Shown piece by piece: positions 12,945-32,447 of a DNA stretch of 64,000 nucleotides. The notes below the pieces were generated by a model. That model did no database searches and was not told where the DNA came from. It worked only from the letters and a program-made list of their open reading frames with translations. The position numbers and the translations under genes are program-made. Origin of the DNA: Naegleria gruberi (Eukaryota); assembly GCA_000004985.1 (NCBI GenBank), contig GG738884.1; one strand, 5' to 3'. The first letter of the stretch is position 1. Each line of letters opens with the position of its first letter.

Positions 12945-15273
12945 ATGTTATCATCAAACAACGTTGGTTCCTCTTCGAGTGGCGATGAGAAGTCATCATT
13001 AAAAAAGCACACAATGCATCATCACAGAGAAGAAATCGATTCATCATCGGCGCTCACAGAAACTTTAGATATTGAAGTTGTTGATGAAGAACATGAAAAG
13101 GATTTAGTGAAGGAGGAAGAAAGTGTTGCGGAATTAATTAAAGATGAAAATGTTGATGAGGAAAAGATTGATGGTGATTTACCAGATCAAGAAGAAGTAG
13201 AAGATGAATCATCTGCCCCAAAGGCTGTTAAAGAAAATTTTGATAAATTAAACGAACTTTTGCAAAAGACCGAAACCTACTCTCGTTTTATTCATGAACA
13301 TGTTGTCGGTGAAGAAGAAGATGATGTAAAAGAAGAAGAACAAGAAGAAGAGGAAGCAAGCGAAGGAGAGGAAGAAGAATCAAACGGAAAAAGAAAAAGA
13401 AAGGGTAGAAAGGCAACAACCACTGACGAATCAGCTCAAAAAAAGTTGAAATCTGTTTTCAGCAAATCCAAGACATTACAAACAGCTAATCAAGCTGCTT
13501 TAAAGTATTCTCAACCAAAATATTTGTCCGGAACAACACTTAGAGATTATCAATTGAAGGGTGTTAACTGGTTGATTAGTTTGTATGAAAATGGTGTCAA
13601 CGGTATTTTGGCAGAGTAAGTTTTCTTTATTTGGAATGTGTTATTTACTAATTATTTCAAGTGAAATGGGTCTCGGAAAAACTATTCAAACTATTGGATT
13701 ATTTTGTCATCTTTATGAAAAGGGAATTAAAGGACCATTCCTTGTTGTTGCACCATTGTCAACTGTATCAAATTGGGTAAATGAGATTGATAAATGGGCT
13801 CCTGATATTGGGTGTGTACTTTATCATGGTAATAAGGATGATAGAGCTATTATAAGAGCAAAGAATTTTTCAAAGGTAAAGAAGGGACAAATTGCTGTAG
13901 TAGTTTCATCATATGAAATTGTTATGAGAGACAAGAAATTCTTGGCAAACAAATTTAATTGGAAGTATATTGTAGTAGATGAAGCCCACAGATTGAAAAA
14001 TTTCAATTGTAGATTAACTAGAGAATTGAAGACTTACTCGAGTGAAAATAGATTGCTTCTTACAGGTACACCATTACAAAATAATTTATCTGAACTTTGG
14101 TCATTACTCAACTTTTTATTACCATCAATTTTTGACGACTTGAGTGCTTTTAACAAGTGGTTTGATTTTACAAAGAAGGAAAAGAATGATTATATTACAA
14201 ATGAAAAGACACAACTCATAAGCAAGCTTCATAACATTCTTCGTCCTTTCTTATTAAGAAGATTGAAGAGTGATGTAGATATTGGTATTCCAAAGAAACG
14301 AGAATTTTTAATTTATACACACATGACAGATATGCAAAAGGAATATTATAATGCTGTAAAAAGTAAGGATCTCTTACCAATTTTCAAAGATCAAAAGAGA
14401 GCAAATAGCACAACTCTTTTGAATTTACTTATGCAAATGAGAAAGATTTGTAACCATCCATTCTTGCTTAGGTATGTTTCGAGATTATTTTACATTTTTT
14501 TAATAATTTTATTTAGAGAATTTGAAACAAAAGACAGTGAATCTGAATCTGCTTCAAACAAGAGATTCTTGAAGGAATGTACACAAAATTCTGGTAAATT
14601 TGGATTACTTGTAAAAATGTTGGAAAATTTGAAAAAGAATGGTCACAAAGTTTTAATCTTCTCTTTAATGACAAGATTTTTGGATGTACTTGAAGATTAT
14701 CTTGAATGTAGAGGTGACATGAAATATTGTAGAATAGATGGTTCCATTGCTCAAACTGAGAGAGAACAAAAAATCAAAGAATTTAATCAAGATGAAGATG
14801 TATTTTGCTTTTTACTTTCCACTCGTGCTGGTGGTTTGGGTATTAACTTGACAGCTGCTGACACTGTTATTATTTACGACAGTGATTGGAATCCTCAAAT
14901 TGATTTACAAGCTCAAGATCGTTGTCACAGAATTGGTCAAAAACGTAGTGTTAGAATTTTCAGATTACTTACGTTAGGAACTGTAGAAAAGAAAGTTCTT
15001 CAAACAGCAACAAAGAAACTCAAATTGGAAAGACTTATCATCCACAAAGGAAACTTTAAAGGCAACACTCAACAACAAAGCAAGATGACTATCACAGCAC
15101 AAAATTTGATGGAAATTTTGGATGATACTCAAGTCAATAATGACAGCAAACATGATGAAGGAATTAATGACGATATCTTGGACAGACTTATCAATGAAAG
15201 AGGAGATGATTCAACTCTTCCAGCTGCAGGTGTTGGATATGAAGAAGCACACATCTTCCAACAAGACTTTTAG
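12945..15273 (+). CDS. SNF2-family chromatin-remodelling ATPase of the HELLS/Lsh/DDM1 type, three exons
   Basis: Exons 12945..13615, 13662..14471 and 14517..15273. Intron 1 is 13616..13661 (GTAAGT...TTTCAAG); splicing restores [15 protein letters not shown]. Intron 2 is 14472..14516 (45 nt, GTATGT...TTTAG). It is in frame, so the ORF reads through it. [33 protein letters not shown]...[14 protein letters not shown] is closely HELLS-like. The helicase-C motifs are [13 protein letters not shown] and [11 protein letters not shown]. Confidence 0.8.
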
Positions 15274-16210: not shown

Positions 16211-17446
16211 TTGAGATCATTCTCTGCCACTCCTTTTTCCCAACAACAACAACAACTCAACAATTGCGCAACCCGAGCCACCTTGAATACCAATCTTGAT
16301 CATAATTCCTCCACTGAATCGTCTTCCAATAATGATTCTTCATCCAGTGGAAACATATCTGAAAAGCCACTTTCGAGACATTCACGAGAGAGTCTTGGCA
16401 CTATATACAATGAAGATTCATGTCAATCGAATACCAATCCTGAGAATACCAATAATTCTTCTGCTAGTGGAGTTGGTGGCCTTTCGTCCTTTGATTCCTC
16501 TTTCCAACATGCTCTCACCACTCAGGAAAACCTCAATGAACCAAATCGATCAAAGAAACTAGATGTTCTCTCAGCTGATCAGATACGACAATACTTTTGC
16601 TATACTCAACAAGATGCTGCTCGTCTATTGGGTGTCTCTGTATCGACATTGAAGAGACGTTTCTATGAGCTCAAGTTGGGAAAGAGATGGCCCTACAAGA
16701 GAACTAAGCAAACACCACGAAAGAGAAAGGATAAGCAGACAATGAGTGAGGAGAGACAACTCATTGATCAGGGTATTAAGGCATGCTCAAATGTTATGAT
16801 TCTCACTCCCATGAAACAATCACCAGTAGTACTACTGATGGCCACAAGTAAGGGAAGCAATAATGGATCTGCAATTCTCAACCTTTCGAATGGTTTCTCT
16901 AATAATGTAGAAGTTTCGGTAAGACAGCAAACACCACCATCTGCTACAAGTAATATGAGTCAACAACAATCAGTTTTCGATAAGAGAAACTTGAAGAATA
17001 ATCAATCATCCTATTCGAGTGGTATTGAAAAGCAACACAAGATGAATTCACCCTCTTCCAATAAGGTACTTTCACCAATCAAGAATATATTACTCCAACA
17101 ACATTCCAATAATTCTGAATTCTTAAGTATTGTAAATAGATCTAGATCCTCTTCCAATCATTCCATGAGCAGTTCCTCAGTTTCTTCCACCAATCCAAAT
17201 AATCAGCATCATTCCTCATCCAATCACTCATTACAAGATGAAAAGGGAGCTCTTTCCACACAACCATATCCACAACTAAATCACAATTCTTATCATCCAT
17301 CCTCGTCCCCCCTCAATATGACGAGAAACGAAAATTCATGCAAGAGAGAAACATCTATGGAGCAATCCAGAAAGAAACTTTCTCTCAGTTATATATTGAA
17401 TCATTCCGATTGTAACAATTCGATATCATCCGAGCAAACTTCATGA
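16211..17446 (+). CDS. RWP-RK domain transcription factor with S/N/Q-rich low complexity (5' end uncertain)
   Basis: The RWP-RK core is LSADQIRQYFCYTQQDAARLLGVSVSTLKRRFYELKLGKRWPYKR. The ORF begins at TTG 16211 and the frame stays open upstream toward 16090 with no in-frame ATG, so the true start or an upstream exon is unresolved. An upstream low-complexity ORF (from about 15941) could be the 5' part. Confidence 0.6.
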   Translation: MRSFSATPFSQQQQQLNNCATRATLNTNLDHNSSTESSSNNDSSSSGNISEKPLSRHSRESLGTIYNEDSCQSNTNPENTNNSSASGVGGLSSFDSSFQHALTTQENLNEPNRSKKLDVLSADQIRQYFCYTQQDAARLLGVSVSTLKRRFYELKLGKRWPYKRTKQTPRKRKDKQTMSEERQLIDQGIKACSNVMILTPMKQSPVVLLMATSKGSNNGSAILNLSNGFSNNVEVSVRQQTPPSATSNMSQQQSVFDKRNLKNNQSSYSSGIEKQHKMNSPSSNKVLSPIKNILLQQHSNNSEFLSIVNRSRSSSNHSMSSSSVSSTNPNNQHHSSSNHSLQDEKGALSTQPYPQLNHNSYHPSSSPLNMTRNENSCKRETSMEQSRKKLSLSYILNHSDCNNSISSEQTS

Positions 17447-18599: not shown

Positions 18600-20513
18600 A
18601 TGCTTCAATCCAACAATCAAACAACAATTTCTCAGAACAATAACCAAAATGCCTCCTCTCTCGTGATGAATTCCGGAGAGAGTGGTATGATGAATCTTGT
18701 AGAAGAGGTTGAACTCTCCATTTCATGTAATAATTTACCGAATTTAGACTTGTTGAGTCTTACTGATGCACAGGTGCATATCTTTTCCAGCTCTACGTCG
18801 AGTAATCAAAACAATTGGGTATTTGTTGGAAAGACTGAAATTATTTGGGATAATTTATATCCGAAAGTATGTAATTGTGATTGATTATTTATTTATTTAT
18901 TTAATTGTGTGTGATGATGAATTAGTTTGTTACCAAATTCTTACTCAAGTACTATTTCGAAACTAATCAATATTTGAAATTCATTGTTGTTGATATTGAC
19001 AATGATAGTCAAAAATTGGAAGATCAAGAATTAGTTGGTGAAATGTATTGTACATTGGGTGAAATTGTTGGTTCAAAGGGAGGTCGATTGGTGAAACCTC
19101 TTCTCCTTCCAAACAAACCAAATGCCAATAGAGGTTTCATTGCAATTCGTTATGAAAAAGTTAATGGTTCAGGATCTGGAGGTCAAGAACTTGTGAATTT
19201 CAAGATTTCTGCCTCTAATTTGGATTCAAAGAATTTCTTCTTTGGTAAATCTGATCCATTCTTGGTGATTAATAGAGTTGATATTGAAGCTAATGAATAT
19301 TCTCCAGTTTACAAATCGGAATATTATAAGAAAACTTTGGAATGCTCATGGAAACCTTTCCAATTGACTACTCAAACTTTGTGTAATGATGATAAAATTA
19401 GAGGACTAAGATTAGAAGTTTATGATTGGAACAAGTCAGGTAAACATGAATTGATTGGTCACTTTGATACCAATTTGGAAGAATTATTGAAGGAAGGAAA
19501 GAATAAGACCTACTTGTTAATTAATCCAGAATTGAAGAAGAAAAAGAAGAATTATATTGGAAGTGGTAACATTAAGATTGAACATATTGATCTCATCAAA
19601 ATTCCTCCAAAACCAACCTTTTTAGATTATATTAGAGGTGGTCACCAAATCAGTTTAATGGTTGCTATTGATTTTACCATTTCAAATGTTGAGGCATGGA
19701 AGGAAATTTCTTTGCACTACATGAAAGAAGGGCATGAGAATGATTACCAACGTGCCATTAGAACAGTTGGTGATATTTTGAATTATTATGACAGTGGTAA
19801 GTGTTAAATTGTCATTTTTCATCTTATTCGAATTATTTTATCATGTTTTCATGATGCTTTTTCAAATGAAATCAGACAAAAAGTACCCAGTTTATGGATT
19901 TGGAGGTAAACTTCCTAACAACAAAACATCTTACTGTTTTGCAGCTAATTTAGATGAAAATAATCCAGAAGTTTATGGAGTTAATGGTATCTTGGAAGCT
20001 TACAAACATGCCATCGAGAATGTTCAATTGTCAGCTCCTACAAACTTTAAACAAATTATTCGTAAGGCAGCTGATTTATCAGAAGAGAGCAAGCTGACTA
20101 ATTATTACATCCTACTCATTTTGACAGATGGTGGTATTACAGATCTACAAGAAACCATTGATGAAATTGTTCGTGCCACCAACTTGCCACTCTCCATCAT
20201 TATAGTTGGTATTGGTAAGGATAGCTTTGGTAATATGGACATTTTAGATGCTGATGAGAAACCATTAGTCTCATCTAAGGGAGTCAAAATGGTTCGTGAC
20301 ATTGTTCAATTCGTTCCATTTAGGGACTTTAAGAATGCTGATCCTTCTGTCCTTGCAAAGGAGGTTCTTCAGGAAGTGCCATTGCAATTCCTTTCCTACA
20401 TGGCTACCAATAACATTATGCCTCAACCTCCAATCAAAGCAGAGTCATTCTATGGAAGTGTTAACAGTAACAGCAATAATAGCTTAATACCCACCCCAAC
20501 TACAAATCAATAA
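18600..20513 (+). CDS. copine (C2-C2-vWA) with three exons
   Basis: Exons 18600 (or ATG 18666)..18866, 18950..19796 and 19876..20513. Intron 1 is 18867..18949 (GTATGT...CTCAAG, phase 0). Intron 2 is 19797..19875 (GTAAGT...AATCAG, phase 1). Copine hallmarks are VELSISCNNLPNLDLLS, FFGKSDPFLVINR, CTLGEIVGS, and the vWA block MVAIDFT...YGFGGKLP...LILTDGGITD. Confidence 0.8.
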
Positions 20514-20759
20514 CTTGAACACCTTTTTTAGTTATTTACTCCACACTACAATTATGTGAGATATGTAAATAAATACAATCACATGCCAAATTGAAATGAA
20601 TGTGTATTGTAAAGGCAGAAAATTAAAATTCCAGATCCAACTCCCCTACTTTTTAAGCAATCTTCTTTAAATGAATAAATCAGCCAGCATTGAGATCATC
20701 ATCCTCAGTAAGCGCAGAAAGGAAATTATTTAGAAGAAGAAAAAATAAAAAGCACAGCC

Positions 20760-22393
20760 ATGCCGACGATGAACAACATCAATGTTGAACCAAGTAATCC
20801 GCTGAAGGGATTCAGAACTGGCTTATTGGAAAAATTGTTCGTGGACACTTCGCCAACAGCTTTGAGGCGAAATTCTATTCACAATACCACATCACCAACA
20901 TCATCTTCTGCAACAGTACTATTAAATAGTAGTGTGGATGGAAAAGAGATAATGGATGAGGGTAGTAGTAGAATTTGCTCTGCACCATCTGGCCTTCCAA
21001 ATCAGTCATCATCAACTAATGGAAAAACAAGTCCTTCATTGCTAACACATTCCCGAATGATGAAGAGATGTTCCAAGCAACAATTGTTAAGCATGCTACC
21101 AAAGAAACCATATTTAAGAATTCAATATGCATCTCACTGTTGCTCTGGGGTTATATCCGATCAATTACAAGAGGAAATTCTTAAAGTTGCCCAACGAGAG
21201 AATGAACTGAGAGGCATAACTGGTGTTTTAATTTGTGTTCAGGACATGTTTTTTCAAATCATTGAGGGTCACACGGAACAAGTAGATAGATTATATCACA
21301 ATATTTTGAAGGATAAGAGACATTATGATGTGGTGTGTGTTGACAAGACATACTTTAGTTTAGATGAGGAGAGATATTTTCCAACTTGGTGCATGCAGGC
21401 ATTGGACATACAGAGCTTATTTGATCATTGTCTCGATCCAGCTCATTCAACAGCTGTTGGGGCTGCATTTAGGGCTTTTAAAACATTACTAGGTATGTTT
21501 CTTTATAATCAACGCCAATAATTATCATTTTTGGATTTTACTGATTCTATCTTTGAATTCAATCATGCATCTTATAAAATATAACCGCTTTGCTAACCTA
21601 TCAATTCAACAGGTTCACTTTTAAATACACAACAAGTGTTTAGAAATTATGCTCAACCTGCCATTTCAAAATATTTGAGTGAAGGGGAGAACCCAATGAT
21701 TAAGGAATCAGTAGAGACTGATAAGGTTATATTATTCATTGATCTTGTAAATTATACGAGTATCACCGAGAAGGTTTCAAAAACAAGGAAACCATCACAA
21801 GTGGTAAATATTTTGAATACATTCTTTGGAGTTGTTATGGAAACAGTTGAGGAATATTCTGGAGAGATAACTAAATTAATTGGTGATTGTGTAATGGTCT
21901 ATTTTGATGGAAACGAATGTCAACAGGCTGTTGATTGTTCCATTGATATTTTGGAGAGACTTGAAACTTTAAGGCAAACATCTGATGATCCTTGCATTAA
22001 GATGATTTATTGTACCATTGGTATCAGCAGAGTAAGTTTTACATCTTGAAAAAAGCTCAAAAATCTTTTTAATAGGGATTGGTTATATTTGGAAATGTTG
22101 GTTCTGTGGGAAGGAAACTTGATTTTACAGTAATTGGAGACTCTGTGAATACAGCATCTAGATTACAATCATTTGCTTCCATTTCTCCACATTTTCTAAT
22201 ATTCGATGAGAGTGTTAGAGAGAGACTAGAAGACACAACAGAACAATGTATCGTTGAAGTTGGGGCAATAGAACTAAAAGGAAAAGAAAGGTCTGTTAAA
22301 ACTTACACAATCGATCACGAACTCAATTACAAACCTTCCAAAAAAGAGATGGACCGCATAATGTCTCTATCAGCCCTCACAGAATATTGTTGA
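20760..22393 (+). CDS. photoactivated adenylyl cyclase type (BLUF domain plus class III nucleotidyl cyclase), paralog 1, three exons, 489 aa
   Basis: Exons 20760..21492, 21613..22031 and 22076..22393. Intron 1 is 21493..21612 (120 nt, GTATGT...CAACAG). Intron 2 is 22032..22075 (44 nt, GTAAGT...TTAATAG). The BLUF domain is LRIQYASHCC...ITGVLICVQDMFFQIIEGHTEQVDRLYHNILKDKRHYDVVCV...FPTWCM. The cyclase domain is ILFIDLVNYT...LIGDCVMVYF...GNVGSVGRKLDFTVIGDSVNTASRLQ. The spliced product aligns colinearly with paralog 2. It also has an N-terminal S/T-rich extension of about 100 aa. Confidence 0.8.
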
Positions 22394-22777
22394 GAGAACC
22401 ACGAGTGGATTCATAGAGATCTATAAGGAATTTTAAATTTGGATTATGGTGTTGTTGGCAGGTTGTATTTAATTCAATGAAAAGCTGTATGGTTTTCCAT
22501 ATATATAATTCACAGAGATATCAAGGAGGCAATGGTATATTTATATTTTTTGTAACCATCTTAATGGGAGAATATTTGAATAAGAAATAGTTAGCCCATT
22601 TTCCTTATTTATAATAATTGGAGACCATATTAAGGATTTGAGATTATAATCTTCATCTTTGTCTCCAACACTTCAAGGTAAAAGGGTGCCTATCCTCGAA
22701 CAACACAACTCAAAAAAAAAAAAAGAACAACTCAACATCAACACCAATCATATTTTTCATCTCCAAATCACCACCAC

Positions 22778-23950
22778 ATGTCCTCCATTCAAGAACAATC
22801 TCCACAATATACTCGTGTGCAATATGTATCCCTCTCAACGCAGGGAGTCATTACAGAAAAGATAAAGTCCCAGATATTAGCCTCATCCAACAAGAACAAT
22901 TCCAAGCGTCATATTACCGGCTGTTTGATATGTGTGAAGGATATGTTCTTTCAAATTATTGAGGGAAAGACAGATGATGTTGAAAATTTATATACAACTA
23001 TTGTCAAGGATAAAAGACACAACAATGTTGTCTGTGTTGACAAGTCTCAGTTTTTTAATGAAGAAGAGAGAATGTTTCCTTCATGGGATATGAAATCGCT
23101 TGATGTTGACAGTTTATTCTCAGCAAAGAAGGAAGTTTTGATTTGTGGGGAGAATTGTAATCCACTGGATCCAGCACATAAACGAGTCATTGAGACTGCA
23201 TTCTCTGCTTTCACAACCTTGATGGGTAGTTTGTTTAGAGCTCAACAAGTTTTCAAGAATTATGCTCAACCGAGTGTCAGCAGGTTTGTCAGAGAAGGAT
23301 TGAATCCACTCTGTATTCAATCAGTTGAAACTGAAAAGATTGTACTTTTTGTTGACCTTGTAAATTATACCACCTTAACAGAAATCATTTCCCAATCGAG
23401 AAGTGCATCAGAAATTGTAAGAATACTCAATGTTTTCTTCACAATTGTTATGGAAATTGTTGAAGAATATGGAGGAGACATTACAAAATTGATTGGTGAC
23501 TGTGTAATGTGTCACTTTGATGGCCATGATTCACAGAAAGCAATAGATTGCTCATTGAAAATCCTCCAACAACTAGAACTTCTCAGAAATGAAACAACCG
23601 ATCCATTCGAAAAACTCATCTTTTGTACAATAGGCATATCTAAAGGAAAGGTCATTTTGGGAAATGTTGGTACAGTGGGTCGTAAATTAGACTATACTGT
23701 CATTGGTGATTCAGTTAACACATCGGCAAGATTGCAATCATTCGCTTCCTCGACTCAATATTATCTCATTTTCGATGAGAATGTAAAGAATGATTTGGAG
23801 AGTGGTGATTCAGTTATTTTCTGTGGTTCGATAGAATTGAAAGGAAAAAGAAATACTGTAAACGCCTACACAATAGAAAATGAATATAATAGAAGATTGT
23901 TGAAAGAAGATTTGAAAGCTCTCTACTGTAGTGTATCACTAGAAATGTAA
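22778..23950 (+). CDS. photoactivated adenylyl cyclase type (BLUF plus class III cyclase), paralog 2, intronless, 390 aa
   Basis: ATG at 22778, single ORF. BLUF residues are present: Tyr in VQYVSLS, Gln in MFFQIIEG, and W/M in FPSWDM. The cyclase metal-binding Asp residues are in FVDLVNYT and IGDCVM. GNVGTVGRKLDYTVIGDSVNTSARLQ matches the guanylate/adenylate cyclase consensus. Confidence 0.85.
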   Translation: MSSIQEQSPQYTRVQYVSLSTQGVITEKIKSQILASSNKNNSKRHITGCLICVKDMFFQIIEGKTDDVENLYTTIVKDKRHNNVVCVDKSQFFNEEERMFPSWDMKSLDVDSLFSAKKEVLICGENCNPLDPAHKRVIETAFSAFTTLMGSLFRAQQVFKNYAQPSVSRFVREGLNPLCIQSVETEKIVLFVDLVNYTTLTEIISQSRSASEIVRILNVFFTIVMEIVEEYGGDITKLIGDCVMCHFDGHDSQKAIDCSLKILQQLELLRNETTDPFEKLIFCTIGISKGKVILGNVGTVGRKLDYTVIGDSVNTSARLQSFASSTQYYLIFDENVKNDLESGDSVIFCGSIELKGKRNTVNAYTIENEYNRRLLKEDLKALYCSVSLEM

Positions 23951-24048
23951 ATAAAATCAATACCTTATTAACTCTATGACTTGACGAGTTGTGCGATAGT
24001 TGATTCTCCTTTACTTTGTCACTGACACTAAATTGTTGATTAGTAACA

Positions 24049-24801
24049 ATGTATCGACATTGTTCTGAATATGATCCTTTAAAAAAAATGTCATCACTGT
24101 TGGACCTCTTTGTTGAATATTGGCCATTTGTAACATTGATCGTTGGTAGTATTGGTTTACTACTCACTCTTCCTTCAATTGTTGGTAAATCTTCTGTTTT
24201 TCACTATTGGTATCTTCCATTATTCTTGTATCTGATTCACATGTTTGAAGAGCATGGAATTGATTTGTTGGGAAGAAGATTTGCTTTTCAAGCAGGGTTG
24301 TGTGCAATTTTGAAGAAGGTCTCCGGAAGTGATAGTTGTGCAGCAACTGAGCTTGTAATTTGTGTTGTGAATTGTGGAACTGTTGTCATTTTGACAACTT
24401 GTGCTGGATTGTGGAGACACACTGATAAATTTACTGGAGTAAAAGCAGGAGCAATTGGTGGAATTTTAATTAATGGACTTTCTCATATTCTCAAAGCTTT
24501 TGAAACCAAGTATGATCCAGGATTGTTGACAGCTGTCTTGTTTTTTATTCCATGCTCAGTTTGGCTCATGATTATTGAATCAAGAAAGAATGGAATTGTT
24601 AAGGTTGTCCTATTCAGTTTATTGATGGGAATTATTCTTCATGCTGTGTTGATTTCTTCACTCATTCTCTCAATGAAAGGTTTAATTGATACTTCTCTAT
24701 TACCAACCATTCAAATCATTAATGGTTTCCTTCCTCTCATGATTACAATATTACAGGGTGAGGCATCATCAATTTCTGAAAGAAAAACCAAAACTAATTA
24801 G
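24049..24801 (+). CDS. HXXEE-domain-like polytopic membrane protein (250 aa)
   Basis: ATG at 24049, with at least six hydrophobic helices. The HMFEEHG motif after helix 2 matches the HXXEE family signature. Confidence 0.45.
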   Translation: MYRHCSEYDPLKKMSSLLDLFVEYWPFVTLIVGSIGLLLTLPSIVGKSSVFHYWYLPLFLYLIHMFEEHGIDLLGRRFAFQAGLCAILKKVSGSDSCAATELVICVVNCGTVVILTTCAGLWRHTDKFTGVKAGAIGGILINGLSHILKAFETKYDPGLLTAVLFFIPCSVWLMIIESRKNGIVKVVLFSLLMGIILHAVLISSLILSMKGLIDTSLLPTIQIINGFLPLMITILQGEASSISERKTKTN

Positions 24802-24978: not shown

Positions 24979-26232
24979 TTACAATTCGAGGTATTCTTTT
25001 AATCTAGCTAACCTATTATCTTCAATATTTACATCTAACAATTTCAATAAATCCTCAAGAATCAATTTTTTGTATACGTCTTTGAATAGAGGATGATGAA
25101 CAGAGACAGAATAGTTATAAGCTAAACCTGTTGGAGATTTACAGGTACAAAAGTACCACTTGTTCTGAAGCTCATTCCAATCAGACCACTGAATTTTCTC
25201 CTCTTTCAAGTGTTGTTTGAGATTCTTCAAACAATGTTGACACTTAATAAATTCACCTCCAAAATGAACTCCATGGAATTCTACAAGTGTGTAAGCACCA
25301 ATTTGAATTTTTTGGCATTGACAAGATTGTAAACAACCACCTGATGATCCATTCATAACACTCTCATTTGAAATAATAAAGTTGGAGTTTTCTGTCGTTA
25401 ATACCAAATCATCATGTTCAACCCATTCAATTTTGCCATTTTGAACTTTTTCAGTGTAAGGTGCAAGTACTTTTCCTGTAGAAACACATAACCTCCCAAA
25501 ATTGTGAAACACGTTTCTAGCCATATCATCACAAGGTGCCCATTCTTGGTATTCCTGATGCTGTGAAACGGAGGTTGAAAATTTAGTTCCTTCAATGCCT
25601 GGAAAATGTGTTGTGAAAATATCATCGTCAATTTGGAGTACAGTTGGACATGGAATGAATAAAACCTTTGGCCATTCATGCGATACTTTACAAGTCAATT
25701 TATGGATTGAAATATCCAAATAATTGAAATTGCCTATTGAGCTGGATATTGGGTCTTGATATTCCTGTTGAAACGATGGAAAAAGTTCTTCTTGTTTTTG
25801 CATGAGTTTCCACCCCTTTTCTCTAATTAGAGAAGCACCTGTATATATAACACTCTCCTCTTTTGGAAGTGTAAAATTGGTTGTTGCTTTTGCAAGTTGT
25901 CCAGTGAAAAATGTAGGTGGAGATGGATAGGATATGTGTTGATTTGTAATTACTTGTTGAGGAAGAATGTAGAAACCTGTACCAACAGCCGAAACAGTTA
26001 GAACCCTTGTCATACTCTTTTTTGTTAGTAATATCAACTCCTTAATAGAGTTTAATTTGTCAAGCCTTGAGTGAGAATATTTCAAATTGGTTGGTGGTAT
26101 AATTTGAGCATCTTCATCTACCAAGAAAACGTTCCAGTAAACATCGTGAAAATGCTCCTTTGTTGAAACTGCAACATCACCTTGTTCCGATTGAGGCACC
26201 ACAACTTCCAACACTTGCCTTACAAACCGCAT
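24979..26232 (-). CDS. hypothetical protein (417 aa) with a trypsin-like (Trypsin_2/DegP-like) peptidase segment
   Basis: ATG at 26232. SAVGTGFYILPQQVITNQH fits the GSGF..ILTNAHV pattern, with a later NGSSGG (GNSGG-like). The C-terminal half is Cys/His-rich. The product call is tentative. Confidence 0.4.
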   Translation of the reverse strand: MRFVRQVLEVVVPQSEQGDVAVSTKEHFHDVYWNVFLVDEDAQIIPPTNLKYSHSRLDKLNSIKELILLTKKSMTRVLTVSAVGTGFYILPQQVITNQHISYPSPPTFFTGQLAKATTNFTLPKEESVIYTGASLIREKGWKLMQKQEELFPSFQQEYQDPISSSIGNFNYLDISIHKLTCKVSHEWPKVLFIPCPTVLQIDDDIFTTHFPGIEGTKFSTSVSQHQEYQEWAPCDDMARNVFHNFGRLCVSTGKVLAPYTEKVQNGKIEWVEHDDLVLTTENSNFIISNESVMNGSSGGCLQSCQCQKIQIGAYTLVEFHGVHFGGEFIKCQHCLKNLKQHLKEEKIQWSDWNELQNKWYFCTCKSPTGLAYNYSVSVHHPLFKDVYKKLILEDLLKLLDVNIEDNRLARLKEYLEL

Positions 26233-26920: not shown

Positions 26921-27286
26921 CTTAGTTTTTGATTTTAATATTGTTTTGTTTTTTTCTTGTTGTAAATTAATTGATCACACTGAGAATGAGGCGAATATTT
27001 ATAGCTTAGTTGATCACAAGAGAGATTGGTTCTTGTATGGAACAGCTTTTAAACTCATCTCTTGGTGTGATTCACATGGCGAAAAAAGCCTTTGAGATCA
27101 ACTCTCTTACTTGTGATGGAGATAAACTTTGGATAATTTTTTTGAATAAGCCGAGAGCTAGTTATTAATGGCGGGAAAGGAATTGAAGTTCATACTCAAC
27201 ATTGATCCACTTGGAGTTTGAATGAAATTTTGAATTTGAATGTTTGCCGCCAAAATTTAAACCATGTTATCCAAGCTATAAATAAA

Positions 27287-28345
27287 ATGATAAAACAAAA
27301 TATCATCACACAATCAGCGTTTCATCTTTTGAAACAGCACAACAAATATCATTATTTTAATAATTTATTATTCGGAATGAGTCAGCAGGCGAACAACAAA
27401 TTTTATAGTGTAAAATCGGAACAAGTTTATACAACAAATAGGATCAAGAGATTTGAAAGGACTCTGACGGAACCGAATCAATTTTCTGTTTACTCACAGA
27501 ATTTGTTGGCCGGGTATTGGACCGATTTGGATAGATATTATTTTGTGGAGGAACCTAAGGAGGAACATTATGAATGGAGTGGGAGAGTAAAGAAACTTTT
27601 GAGAGATTTCACCATTCATCAACCTGACATTTTATGTCTGCAAGAAGTAGAATTGGCTTGTTTTGAAAAGGACGTTTTGGAACCTTTGCAGAAAGTAGAC
27701 GAAAGTTATAGAGGTGTAGCACAGAAAAAACTTGGAGATTTCCCAGTCGGAGTTGGGTGTATCTTTAAAGAAAGCGTTTTTGAATTGGTAGAAGTTTTTG
27801 AAAGAAGTTCTGTAATTATTTTGGTATTGAAATTTAAAGCAAATGATACACTGATATATGTGTCATCTTGCCATTTGATGGGAGATCCACGAAAACCTCA
27901 AACACGTATCAACCAACTCAAATCTTATTTCAAACATCTCAAAAATTATCAGAAGGGAAAGGATCATCCTGTAATTGTAGCTGGGGACTTTAACACAGAA
28001 CCAAACTCTGCTACGTATGATTATGTAGTGAATGGATTCCTCAAAGGTAAATCTGAGGAGAATGATGTTATCGCAACTGATACTGATATCAAGCACACAT
28101 TCAAATTAAAAAGTGCATATAAGGAAATTAATGGCAAGGAACCTGAAATGACATTGAGAACAATTAACAGCTCACTAACCTGTGATTATCTTTTCTACAC
28201 TAATGAATCTCTAAAGCTCAATAATGTAATGTCTCTTTACGAAAATGGAGATAAGACACACATGGAACGTTTAGGCTTGCCAAACTCAAAATATGGATCA
28301 GACCACTTGGGATTACAAGCACATTTTACGATTACAAAGCAATAA
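27287..28345 (+). CDS. endonuclease/exonuclease/phosphatase (EEP) family protein, similar to CCR4, angel, nocturnin or PDE12
   Basis: ORF 27218..28345; the first ATG is at 27287. EEP motifs are DILCLQEVE, VIVAGDFNTEPNSATYDYV and the C-terminal GSDHLGLQAHF. Confidence 0.65.
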   Translation: MIKQNIITQSAFHLLKQHNKYHYFNNLLFGMSQQANNKFYSVKSEQVYTTNRIKRFERTLTEPNQFSVYSQNLLAGYWTDLDRYYFVEEPKEEHYEWSGRVKKLLRDFTIHQPDILCLQEVELACFEKDVLEPLQKVDESYRGVAQKKLGDFPVGVGCIFKESVFELVEVFERSSVIILVLKFKANDTLIYVSSCHLMGDPRKPQTRINQLKSYFKHLKNYQKGKDHPVIVAGDFNTEPNSATYDYVVNGFLKGKSEENDVIATDTDIKHTFKLKSAYKEINGKEPEMTLRTINSSLTCDYLFYTNESLKLNNVMSLYENGDKTHMERLGLPNSKYGSDHLGLQAHFTITKQ

Positions 28346-28589: not shown

Positions 28590-31500
28590 ATGATCCGAAC
28601 TCAAAAAAAAACACAAAAGATGACAGGCCAGCAGGTCTGTATTGGAAGAAGTCTTTCCTCTGAAGGCTACTTGATGTTGTTGACATTGATGGTAGCTATA
28701 GTTTGTCTCTCTCAAATCTCTTCAGTTTCTGGAATTACATTCTACGCCAGTATCGATTGTGGTCCTCATGGAAATTGTAGTGGCTACGCATGCCAATGTG
28801 AAAGTGGTTATATTGGCCCTCATTGTGAATATCAATGTAATGATACGGAATGTAATGGTCATGGAAAGTGCAACCCATCTTATAGTGGTTCATATGGTAG
28901 TAGTTTTTGTAAGTTTCACACATGTGCTTTTTTACAATAATATAATTACATGCGTAATTTGTTCTTTTTTTACAATAATATGATTACATATATGTAATTT
29001 GTTCATGATACAGGTAATTGTGATAAGGGTTATGGTGGCGTGAATTGTTCACAAAAGTTCGATTGTTCTTCATTGAATAATTGCTCAGCTCATGGTTATT
29101 GTTCCTACGACAATTATTGTACATGTGACTATGAGTGGACTGCTGCCAATTGTTCCCTTCCAATCACTTGTAATAAGGTCAATAATTGCTCAGGTCATGG
29201 TTATTGTTCTGGTTATCAAGCTTGTAGTTGCTCTCAAGGATGGACTGGTGCTGATTGTAATTCCGTTTACAATTGTTCACTTCTTAATAATTGCAATGGA
29301 AGAGGTATTTGTTCTGCTGATAATTATTGCTATTGTAATTCCCAAAGTGGTTATTATGGTGTCGATTGTACTACACCATACAATTGTTCAGCTTTGAATA
29401 ATTGTTCAAGTCATGGTGTCTGTACAAATAACGACTATTGTACTTGTAGTGCTGGTTATTATGGAACTAATTGTTCATTGAAATATGAGTGTGTATCCAA
29501 TGATGAATGTGGATTTCCAAATGGTAATTGTATGATGGGCTCTTGTTCTTGTGTTTTTGGTTGGGGAGGTGAAAAATGTCAAAAGATGATTTGTCCAAAC
29601 AATTGTAATAATCATGGCAATTGTTCTTCACCTGGTTCCTGTACTTGTGATAATGGATGGCTTGGTTCTGAATGTTCTTACTCATGTTCTGGTATTGGAG
29701 GTTGTGGTATTAATGGATATTGTGCCAATAATAATTCCTGCGTTTGTTATCCAGGTTGGCAAGGTGTCAATTGTAATATTGCAAAATCTCCAAATTGTAC
29801 TGCTTTTAATAATTGTTCAGGAAATGGTGATTGCATAAGTAGTTATGGAGGAGATGATTACTGCTCATGCTACCAAACTTATTATGGAGACAAGTGTGAT
29901 CTCAAGTACAATTGTAGCTCTTTAAATAATTGCTCAGGTCATGGTGTCTGTACAAATATCAACTATTGTACATGTGAAGCTGGTTTTGGTGGAAAGGACT
30001 GTTCTTCAAAGCCAAACTGTACTTCTTTGAATAACTGCAGTGGTCATGGCGTGTGTACTTATGATGACTATTGTATTTGTAATCTTAATTATGGAAATGC
30101 TGATTGCTCAGTTTACAATCCTCCAATTTGTCCAAATAATTGCTCTGGTAATGGTACATGCAATCAATATAGCTCTTGTGATTGTAAGGAAGGATATTGG
30201 GGATATGATTGCACAATTACTTGTCCAAAAACAAAGAATTGTAACAGTCATGGTTTTTGTTATGCTCAAGACCAATGCTCTTGTAATGTTGGTTGGATGG
30301 GAGAAGATTGCTCAGTTCCAGAACCAAATTGCAATGCTGTTAAGAATTGTTCCTATCATGGTGTTTGTATAGAAAACAATGTTTGTGCATGCTATACTGG
30401 TTATGATGGTTTAACTTGTGCTGACTATTCATGTAGAAACGTTTCAAATTGTAATGGGCATGGCTCATGCGTTGGGGTTGATACTTGCCAGTGTAAGAGT
30501 GGTTGGAGAGGAAACTCAGATTGTTCTGCCTTCTCTTGTGAAGCTGTTAATAATTGTACTGGATTGGGAAGCTGCATTGGTCAAAATCAATGTTCAGGAA
30601 ATCCATCAATCAAGTGTTATGGAGTTGTTTCAACCAGTGGTTCTGTATGTAGTGGTAAGGGTACTTGTGTTGGAACTGATAGTTGTCAATGTGTTAGTGG
30701 AGCTTTTGGATCTAATTGTAATTCATTTGCTAGAATTCCATCTAGCCAATTGGTTATTAACTCTGTCAATTTCGAGTCTGTCATTTCAATTCCAGTAACT
30801 TTGACTGGTCCAAGTACCTACACATTCAAATGGAAACAAGTTGGTGGATCTCCTTCATTGCAACTCTCTACAATTGCTGTGGGAGGTATTGTCAATGGAC
30901 CTGGTTTGTACATTAACGCAAATTCTGAAACATTCAACAATGGAATGGTTGCTGGTGAAACTTACACCTTCCAAGTTAATATTACTAGAGCTGATGGATA
31001 CTCTACCGTTTTGGAATCAAGCGTTCAAGTTGGTTTGAGTCCAGTGTTGAAAGCCACAATAGTCAATCCATCTGATAACTCACAAACTGGTGTTGCTGTT
31101 ACTACCAAATTTACTGCTACTATTCAAGAATCCTATGATCCAAATGATTCTGAAGCTACATTAATGTACGGATATGGTTTCTACACTGAAAGTGGTTTGA
31201 AGGTTGTCTCTGTTTATTCTTCATCCAAGCAAACTAATTTAACGCTCCCATATCAAACTGGTGGCTCCGTTACTGCCTTTGTATACGTCATCAATGCACA
31301 AACTGGTAATCAAAAGGAACTCAAGTTCTCAATGAATGTTTCAAATCCAACAAGTGGAAAGTCAGCCTCAGAAGTCAATTCATTTGTTCAAAATCTTGTT
31401 ACTTCAGATGCTTCGGTTTCTCAATTGTCCATAGCTGTTCAATTGTTGACCACCTCACCATCCAGTGATCCAACTGTTGTTCAACAACGTACCGATATCA

Positions 31501-32447
31501 AGCAACAAGTTATTACAACTCTCGTTTCTAAACCAGTAACAACTAGTGCTGAAAGAGACACTTTGTTGACAGTTCTTGTTTCAACTACTCAATCAGCCAA
31601 CGAAGTATCAACTACATCAGTTACAAAGACTTTGGATTTCTTAGTTTCCCAACCATCATTGGCTCAAAACTTCAATCCATCCCAACTTGGTCAACTTGCC
31701 TCTCAAATTTTGTCAACAGCTGTTTTTAATTCGACCAGTATCTCAACTTCCACCACAAGTAAACAAGTTAGAACCATCATCGATGCTGCCATGACTGCCA
31801 CAGCCTCAAACTTGGCTGCTGGACAAAGTGCTGTCAAGACATTTGGTAACATTGTTGCTGTCGTTTCAAGTAATACTCTTGATAATTTACAACCAACAAT
31901 CCCAACTAATTCAATTAGCTCAGTGGGTATTAAATCAATTTCTCTCCCAACTGCTAGTTTACAAAGTTTATTCACCAACTCTGGTCTTCCATCAAGCACT
32001 TTAGTTTCCTTATCACTTTCAACGGCTCCACTCTCAATGTACTCCTTCACTCAAACTAAACTAGCCTCAACTCTTGCCAGAATCGCCTTAATTAATTCCA
32101 ACAGTGCCTCTGCTATAGCTGTTGCCAATTTGACATTACCAATTGAATTCAATCTCCAACTTGGTGGTCCTGTAGAAAATGGAAAGACACCAAAATGCAA
32201 ATACTTTAACGAAGTTTCTAATTCCTTCACCACTGATGGCATTGAAACTATTGTCATCTCTTCAAGTGAAATCAAGTGTAGAGTTACTCACTTGACTGAT
32301 TTTGCAATTGTTCCAGAAACAAGTGGAACACCAACAAGTTCTGGTTCAGTGGTCAAGCCAAAGGATACTATTTCAGAAGGAAGTTCAGTTTCTGCAACTC
32401 TTGTTACATTATTAGTTGCTATTTTCTCAATGTTTTTCATGTTTTAA
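28590..32447 (+). CDS. large cell-surface protein: signal peptide, about 18 tandem tenascin/EGF-like Cys repeats, a Ser/Thr-rich stalk, a GPS (GAIN-type autoproteolysis) motif and a C-terminal hydrophobic anchor
   Basis: Exons 28590..28908 and 29014..32447. The intron 28909..29013 runs GTAAGT...ATACAG (phase 1). A repeat unit of about 36 aa, C.S.LNNCSGHG.C...YC.C..G..G.DC, recurs from about 28740 to 30720. The GPS consensus KCKYFNEVSNSFTTDGIETIVISSSEIKCRVTHLTDFAIV sits at about 32195-32315. The C-terminus is VSATLVTLLVAIFSMFFMF. Confidence 0.7.
28925..29010. repeat. tandem ~42-bp duplication inside intron 1 of the EGF-repeat gene
   Basis: ttttttacaataatataattacatgcgtaatttgttc is followed by tttttttacaataatatgattacatatatgtaatttgttc. 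Confidence 0.4.

Follow-up and report, generated by a model that had tools for sequence, protein, structure and literature searches.

Tandem genes for the photoactivated adenylyl cyclases NgPAC3 and NgPAC1 in Naegleria gruberi: identity, splice model and evolution

INTRODUCTION

Four genes encoding photoactivated adenylyl cyclases (PACs), NgPAC1 to NgPAC4, have been described in Naegleria gruberi (Tanwar et al., 2017; PMC5608697). When the proteins were assayed in HEK293T cells, blue light raised the level of cyclic AMP (cAMP) ~14-fold with NgPAC1 and ~34-fold with NgPAC3 (PMC5608697). The structures to which they can best be compared are those of two bacterial enzymes, OaPAC from Oscillatoria acuminata (4yus and 5x4t) and bPAC from Beggiatoa (5m27), both of which are homodimers with an alpha-3 bundle and an active site located at the cyclase interface (PMC6937261). 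Here, we report on a 64 kb stretch of DNA (hereafter, the window) from N. gruberi strain NEG-M, in which two adjacent genes each encode a BLUF blue-light sensor joined to a class III cyclase. We conclude that the upstream gene is almost certainly NgPAC3 (three exons, 489 amino acids) and the downstream gene NgPAC1, also known as nPAC (intronless, 390 amino acids), and that the two are old tandem paralogs, both encoding soluble photoactivated adenylyl cyclases.

The tandem pair is thus already known, having been annotated, biochemically characterized and exploited as optogenetic tools. The NgPAC genes were annotated with the 2010 genome, the downstream gene was described as "nPAC" by Penzkofer et al. 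(2011, Chem Phys 387:25), and NgPAC3 is the subject of a photochemistry paper by Penzkofer et al. (2014, J Photochem Photobiol A 287:19); photodynamics papers on NgPAC proteins, published between 2011 and 2014, are cited in PMC5608697. An earlier note, made from the letters of this DNA alone, had suggested that the two genes could serve as optogenetic cAMP tools. Such a use already exists, given the published light-induced cAMP formation in HEK293T cells (PMC5608697); it dates from at least 2017, and further optogenetic work has since made use of NgPAC1 and NgPAC3.

RESULTS

Identity of the two genes

Reading of positions 20400-24400, together with a listing of the open reading frames (ORFs), gave two coding regions on the same strand, with the same coordinates as in the earlier note. 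The spliced coding sequence of the upstream gene is 1470 nucleotides (nt) long and runs uninterrupted through 489 codons for amino acids, whilst the downstream gene (22778..23950, + strand) is a single intronless ORF of 390 amino acids. An alignment of the two proteins extends over 371 amino acids with 55% identity (E 3e-151). In an exact-sequence look-up, the upstream protein was identical to EFC41627.1 / XP_002674371.1 and the downstream protein to EFC41628.1 / XP_002674372.1, both from N. gruberi. The two deposited entries are located on a 363-kb scaffold and are both named "BLUF domain-containing soluble adenylate/guanylate cyclase".

The assignment to NgPAC3 and NgPAC1 came from the cloning primers and from the size of the proteins. 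Table S1 of PMC5608697 lists NgPAC3 primers that encode MPTMNN... and ...ALTEYC, which are the exact termini of the upstream protein, and the NgPAC1 primers translate to MSSIQE... and ...LEM, the exact termini of the downstream protein (...SLEM). Those for NgPAC2 translate to MSSIT... and ...SIL and match a 392 amino acid protein (P0005) encoded outside the window. The computed masses are 54.9 kDa (NgPAC3) and 44.1 kDa (NgPAC1). They fit the 62 kDa and 52 kDa bands published for the respective tagged proteins, because tagged bPAC runs at 47 kDa in the same study (PMC5608697). Based on the primer termini and the fit of the masses, we therefore identify the upstream gene as NgPAC3 and the downstream gene as NgPAC1, and found no evidence that contradicts this identification. 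The coordinates, the profile matches given below and the exact identity with NgPAC3 and NgPAC1 bear out the proposal of the earlier note that these are tandem paralogs, on the same strand, of the BLUF-class III cyclase type.

Domains, residues and structure

Both proteins scored well above the Pfam gathering cut-offs for BLUF (PF04940; 25 bits) and Guanylate_cyc (PF00211; 21.9 bits), with a single match to each profile. For NgPAC3, the scores were 82.6 bits for BLUF (residues 120-213; ~21117-21398, + strand) and 69.1 bits for Guanylate_cyc. For NgPAC1, they were 87.5 bits for BLUF (residues 13-106; ~22814-23095, + strand) and 59.4 bits for Guanylate_cyc, with the cyclase domain extending over residues 189-367 (~23342-23878, + strand).

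All of the sequence motifs on which the earlier note based its claim of an intact photocycle and intact metal sites were found (QYAS/QYVS, MFFQIIEG, FPTWCM/FPSWDM, DLVNYT and GDCVM), and could be mapped onto OaPAC. The photocycle residues Y6, Q48, W90 and M92 of OaPAC correspond to Y16, Q59, W103 and M105 in NgPAC1 and to Y123, Q166, W210 and M212 in NgPAC3. In the surroundings of the flavin, Tyr6, Asn30, Gln48, Asp67, Trp90 and Met92 of OaPAC are kept in both Naegleria proteins, as are Asp156 and Asp200 (which bind the metals), Asp270, Asn273 and Arg277. The catalytic residues are D193, K237, D241, D305, T307, D311, N314 and R318 in NgPAC1, and D288, K332, D336, D400, T402, D406, N409 and R413 in NgPAC3; both proteins thus have the Lys in TK(L)IGD and the Asp-Thr pair in LD(Y/F)T. 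The roles of these last residues and of Arg277 are general knowledge for class III cyclases. Those of OaPAC Tyr6, Asn30, Gln48, Asp67, Trp90, Met92, Asp156, Asp200, Asp270 and Asn273 have been described (PMC11533990).

This set of residues also bears on the idea that the two proteins make cyclic GMP, or are catalytically inactive sensors. The generic "adenylate/guanylate cyclase" of the NCBI name would leave room for such an idea, as would the replacement of OaPAC Glu279 by Gln in both proteins, and of Arg63 by Thr or Asn; in addition, a relative encoded on a metagenomic contig (L002, see below) has Glu in place of both metal-binding Asp residues. However, NgPAC1 and NgPAC3 keep both of these Asp residues, the Lys and the Asp-Thr that specify ATP (guanylyl cyclases have a Glu/Cys pair instead), and the Asn and Arg residues of the transition state. 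Moreover, light-dependent production of cAMP has been published for both proteins (PMC5608697). We consider it extremely unlikely that either is a guanylyl cyclase or inactive.

Sequence matches to OaPAC (4yus; E 8e-67) and bPAC (5m27; E 1e-56) each covered both domains in two aligned stretches. In the AlphaFold model of NgPAC3, which is of a monomer only, an ordered BLUF fold (residues 118-216) is followed by a long helix (227-257), situated between the BLUF and cyclase parts, and by the cyclase domain (278-464). The best fold matches of this model in the PDB were OaPAC and bPAC, over their full length (E ~6e-35), and its cyclase part superimposed on the bPAC cyclase domain (5mbg) with a template-modelling score of 0.90 and a root-mean-square deviation of 2.2 Å. 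NgPAC1 and NgPAC3 are each of the bacterial "small PAC" type, in which one N-terminal BLUF domain and one class III cyclase domain would be connected by a long alpha-3 helix. The linker from BLUF to cyclase is longer than in the bacterial PACs, by 12 amino acids in the PAC3 type and by 24 in the PAC1/2 type; the extra residues fall in columns 235-265 of our alignment (A1), at residues ~220-240 of NgPAC3 and ~113-145 of NgPAC1. The stretch added in PAC1/2 includes a Cys-x-x-x-Cys motif (ICGENC).

By analogy with the OaPAC and bPAC structures, and with the published assays of NgPAC proteins, we infer that each NgPAC protein would form a homodimer. When the flavin absorbs blue light, the hydrogen-bond network between Tyr, Gln and the flavin, which the Met/Trp pair neighbors, would be rearranged, and the paired alpha-3 helices would pass the signal on to the interface of the cyclase dimer, where two metal ions bound by Asp, together with the Lys and the Asp-Thr pair, would turn ATP into cAMP.

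Splice model of NgPAC3

As modeled, NgPAC3 consists of three exons on the + strand. Exon 1 (20760..21492), read directly from the ORF and the splice junction, comprises codons 1-244 and the first base of codon 245, and contains both the N-terminal extension and the BLUF domain. It is followed by intron 1 (21493..21612), a phase 1 intron of 120 nt with the borders GTATGT...CAG, which lies in the BLUF-to-cyclase linker (TLLG|SLL). In exon 2 (21613..22031), the last part of the linker helix is followed by the first half of the class III cyclase domain, including Asp288 (metal), Lys332 and Asp336. Intron 2 (22032..22075; 44 nt, GTAAGT...TAG) is in phase 0 between Arg384 and Gly385 (IGISR|G), and exon 3 (22076..22393) runs from the second half of the cyclase domain (with Asp400, Thr402, Asp406, Asn409 and Arg413) through the C-terminal tail to the stop codon.

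Without splicing, the NgPAC3 frame breaks at 21521 and 22049. It could be argued on these grounds that the gene is mis-modeled, or is a decaying pseudogene in which the "introns" are disruptions of a once continuous ORF, leaving NgPAC1 as the only functional copy. Several observations speak against this. First, the borders of both introns are canonical (GT...AG), and removal of 21493-21612 and 22032-22075 restores the frame exactly; intron 1 has a GC content of 27.5%. Second, the spliced protein is colinear with NgPAC1 and with a 474 amino acid PAC of N. australiensis across both junctions, with no insertions or deletions there. Third, a metagenomic contig (L007) that is 98.9% identical to 21262-22703 represents a natural strain variant, and seven of its eight exon substitutions, which are spread over all three exons, are synonymous in the spliced frame, with one being non-synonymous. 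The sole insertion or deletion in L007 is a 5-nt deletion within intron 1. Fourth, a synthetic NgPAC3 gene that follows this model gave the ~34-fold rise in cAMP in the light (PMC5608697). All four observations speak for the splice model and, together with the finding that outgroup homologs have an intron at the same position as intron 2 (see below), they leave next to no probability for a pseudogene.

Because the translated protein matches the deposited one exactly, the deposited NgPAC3 gene model must have the same two introns. The earlier note had proposed just this structure, namely introns of 120 nt and 44 nt in the upstream gene and none in the downstream one, and both the restored frame and the deposited model agree with it. 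One ORF from a metagenome (P0004) runs into intron 2 and stops there.

The N-terminal tail of NgPAC3

The N-terminal extension (20760-21110, + strand) corresponds to the 117 residues ahead of the BLUF domain, as compared to 10 in NgPAC1. It contains 27% Ser and Thr, versus 14% in the remainder of the protein, in keeping with the Ser/Thr-rich extension described in the earlier note. AlphaFold assigned residues 1-108 a predicted local distance difference test (pLDDT) score of <50, and this part of the tail is thus predicted to be disordered. The 474 amino acid N. australiensis ortholog also has a tail; good alignment is confined to its last ~30 residues (KSPS.LT..RMMKRCSKQQLLS.LPKKP), ahead of which the sequence is divergent and of low complexity. 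The conserved part lies upstream of an internal Met-Met, which indicates that translation of NgPAC3 starts further upstream, as modeled. A role of the tail in regulation or localization is possible.

Evolution of the pair and of its introns

To place the two genes, we built a neighbor-joining tree with Kimura distances on 348 trimmed columns, with 200 bootstraps. NgPAC3 grouped with the 474 amino acid N. australiensis PAC (100% support), NgPAC1 and NgPAC2 grouped together with the 384 amino acid N. australiensis PAC as sister to both (100%), and the five Naegleria PACs clustered together in a single clade (100%). Just outside this clade were L002 and L003, two metagenomic homologs of eukaryote-like character, with 99% support for the wider grouping; bacterial PACs of ~350 amino acids came next, and the Euglena-type double PACs were the most distant. 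A phylogeny with the NgPAC and Euglena types had been proposed in the earlier note as a check, and the tree places NgPAC1, NgPAC2 and NgPAC3 in a single Naegleria clade. On the trimmed alignment, N. gruberi and N. australiensis orthologs are 82% identical for the NgPAC3 type and 77% for the NgPAC1 type. The closest paralog of NgPAC1 is NgPAC2 (80-81% identical), which lies outside the window.

Since N. australiensis has a separate ortholog of each copy, the tree indicates that the tandem duplication that gave rise to NgPAC3 and NgPAC1 is old, and predates the split of N. gruberi and N. australiensis. The youngest duplication on the tree is the NgPAC1/NgPAC2 split.

With regard to the introns, the position and phase 0 of intron 2 are shared with L002 (39-nt intron) and with a further homolog, L006 (41 nt), at the sequence IG(I/M)S(R/K)|G, and Gly385, directly after the intron, is invariant. 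Intron 2 is absent from NgPAC1, from NgPAC2 (L001, one continuous ORF) and from L003. By parsimony, the presence of a phase 0 intron at the same position in the outgroup homologs L002 and L006 favors loss, and intron 2 is probably ancestral, with a subsequent loss in the lineage of NgPAC1 and NgPAC2. Among the homologs compared, only NgPAC3 was seen to have intron 1.

In a different history, an intronless PAC would have been duplicated locally in recent times, and the upstream copy would then have gained both introns and its N-terminal tail. The two genes lie side by side in the same orientation, and PACs of the bacterial type are intronless, so that an ancestral gene taken up from bacteria would initially have had no introns. 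The restriction of intron 1 to NgPAC3 fits with gain, and so does the exon context of intron 2 (AGA|GGA, AAG|GGA), which resembles a proto-splice site. Yet the copies are just 55% identical, each has a distinct N. australiensis ortholog (82% and 77%) with 100% bootstrap support, NgPAC1 is nearer to NgPAC2 (81%) than to its neighbor, and in both outgroup homologs, an intron matches intron 2 exactly in site and phase. A recent duplication is unlikely in view of these data, and we favor an old one. The earlier note had explained the pair by tandem duplication followed by intron loss or gain. The tandem paralogy stands, with the duplication being old; as for the introns, loss is favored for intron 2, and either loss or gain may apply to intron 1.

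Certain points weigh against the interpretation given so far. The flavin photocycle and catalysis are taken here from the literature, and the intron calls draw on comparison with related sequences, on the gene model as deposited and on the finding that a synthetic gene made to that model is active. The phylogeny is a distance tree on 348 columns from which L006, being partial and frame-shifted, was left out. Finally, intron 2 may have been gained independently in different lineages at the same proto-splice-like spot.

Related genes in environmental sequences

L007 overlaps at 22683-22703 with a second contig (L008, from ENA ERZ929261), which suggests that the same tandem arrangement is present in an environmental strain. 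L008 is 97.5% identical and carries an NgPAC1 ortholog with a 5-nt deletion (TTTGT) at window positions 23230-23234, which changes ...MGSLFR... to GS-stop and splits the ORF. The substitutions in L008 comprise 14 synonymous and 9 non-synonymous changes. Either the ortholog has recently become a pseudogene in that strain, or the contig was misassembled.

The eukaryote-like BLUF-cyclase homolog on L002 (positions 1137-2300 of a contig from ENA ERZ27315067, 40% GC) has two short introns. Both of its metal-binding Asp residues are changed to Glu (FVELVSY and IQGESVL), and the substrate Lys is changed to Tyr; the protein is probably a catalytically inactive BLUF-cyclase-like protein, as judged from these residues. 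In L003 (8500-8570), and likewise in L004 and L005, the same PAC homolog has a 1-nt frame shift directly after GDCAIIY, inside the cyclase domain, with no room for an intron. These contigs come from three independent assemblies (ENA, JGI and Logan), and the frame-shifted homolog is either a pseudogene or has an unusual feature.

Surroundings of the pair

NgPAC3 and NgPAC1 are separated by a 384 bp spacer (22394..22777), in which neither the ORF listing nor tblastn revealed an ORF with homology; it should contain the 3' untranslated region of NgPAC3 and the promoter and 5' untranslated region of NgPAC1. A tblastn search of the 64-kb window with NgPAC1 matched only NgPAC3 and NgPAC1 and gave no third copy, and NgPAC2 and NgPAC4 are therefore located elsewhere. 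NgPAC4 was not found in any of the searches made. A repeat scan found no tandem repeats in the region, and a scan for sigma-70 promoters and terminators, which is irrelevant for a eukaryote, gave fewer sites than in shuffled sequence.

Immediately upstream lies a copine gene (18974-20513, + strand; C2 domain and Copine/vWA domain), the ORF of which is interrupted near 19797, apparently by a short intron of the GTAAGT type of roughly 80 nt. Downstream of the pair are genes for a multi-pass membrane protein of the HXXEE motif family (24049-24801, + strand; PF13787) and for a 417 amino acid ORF without a Pfam match (24979-26232, - strand). We considered an operon-like link of the PAC pair to the copine and HXXEE genes, but no functional link was evident, nor would one be expected in a eukaryote. 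Further away, the + strand encodes a SNF2-family helicase (13585-15273), an RWP-RK domain protein (16211-17446), an endonuclease/exonuclease/phosphatase-family protein (27218-28345) and a large teneurin-like EGF-repeat protein (29040-32447). An EGF-repeat gene similar to the last of these also adjoins the PAC homolog on L003.

DISCUSSION

As the two genes were already characterized, our analysis adds little that is new. The additions are small: the duplication turns out to be old, intron 2 was probably lost in the NgPAC1/2 lineage, and comparative data support the splice model. The remaining value of the locus is evolutionary and physiological, as an old tandem duplicate with differential retention of introns, and with a partly conserved tail, predicted to be disordered, in NgPAC3; no long-standing question is made newly testable by the finding of the pair. 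In evolutionary terms, the intronless state of NgPAC1 and NgPAC2 may reflect loss of an ancestral intron within the tandem array, which would be the smaller novelty.

In the literature searched, we found no in-vivo role for light-driven cAMP in Naegleria. Given that class III cyclases act as dimers, one might imagine that NgPAC3 and NgPAC1 form heterodimers like those of the Euglena alpha and beta proteins, and that the tail, with its conserved proximal part (RMMKRCSKQQLLS.LPKKP) and its Ser/Thr-rich region, would be a phospho-regulated or localization module. As an example, the module might direct the protein to flagella or basal bodies during the switch from amoeba to flagellate. We regard this combined proposal, which is drawn by analogy, as quite doubtful; were it true, it would give Naegleria a light-to-cAMP pathway with an undefined physiological role.

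In comparison with known systems, the upstream gene is the same as NgPAC3 of N. gruberi NEG-M (XP_002674371.1), and the downstream gene the same as NgPAC1/nPAC of that strain (XP_002674372.1), with no difference in either case. NgPAC2 (392 amino acids, P0005-like) and the two N. australiensis proteins, UniProt W0SLB1 (384 amino acids) and W0SQL6 (474 amino acids), have the same single BLUF-cyclase architecture as NgPAC1 and NgPAC3. The N. australiensis PACs were reportedly described by Yasukawa et al. in 2013. W0SQL6 is the ortholog of NgPAC3 (81% identical), and its N-terminal extension contains the conserved RMMKRCSKQQLLS.LPKKP segment, although most of the tail is not conserved between N. 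gruberi and N. australiensis. The other two, W0SLB1 and NgPAC2, are 76-80% identical to NgPAC1 and cluster with it.

The Euglena gracilis PAC alpha and beta proteins, which are said to have been reported by Iseki et al. in 2002, are likewise eukaryotic, and in them, too, BLUF controls a class III adenylyl cyclase by blue light. However, Euglena-type subunits have two BLUF-cyclase units per chain, whereas the Naegleria proteins have one. The Euglena-type double-unit proteins in our tree (P0054 and P0055; 718-807 amino acids, with four matched stretches) form its most distant group. Membership of NgPAC1 and NgPAC3 in the Euglena type was considered, and is ruled out by the single BLUF and single cyclase match in each protein.

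OaPAC and bPAC have the same domain order, photocycle and catalytic residues, and fold as NgPAC1 and NgPAC3, even though the identity of the Naegleria PACs to these bacterial enzymes is just ~30-37%. They differ at the positions of OaPAC Glu279 and Arg63 discussed above, and NgPAC3, unlike OaPAC and bPAC, has a tail that is predicted to be disordered, and spliceosomal introns.

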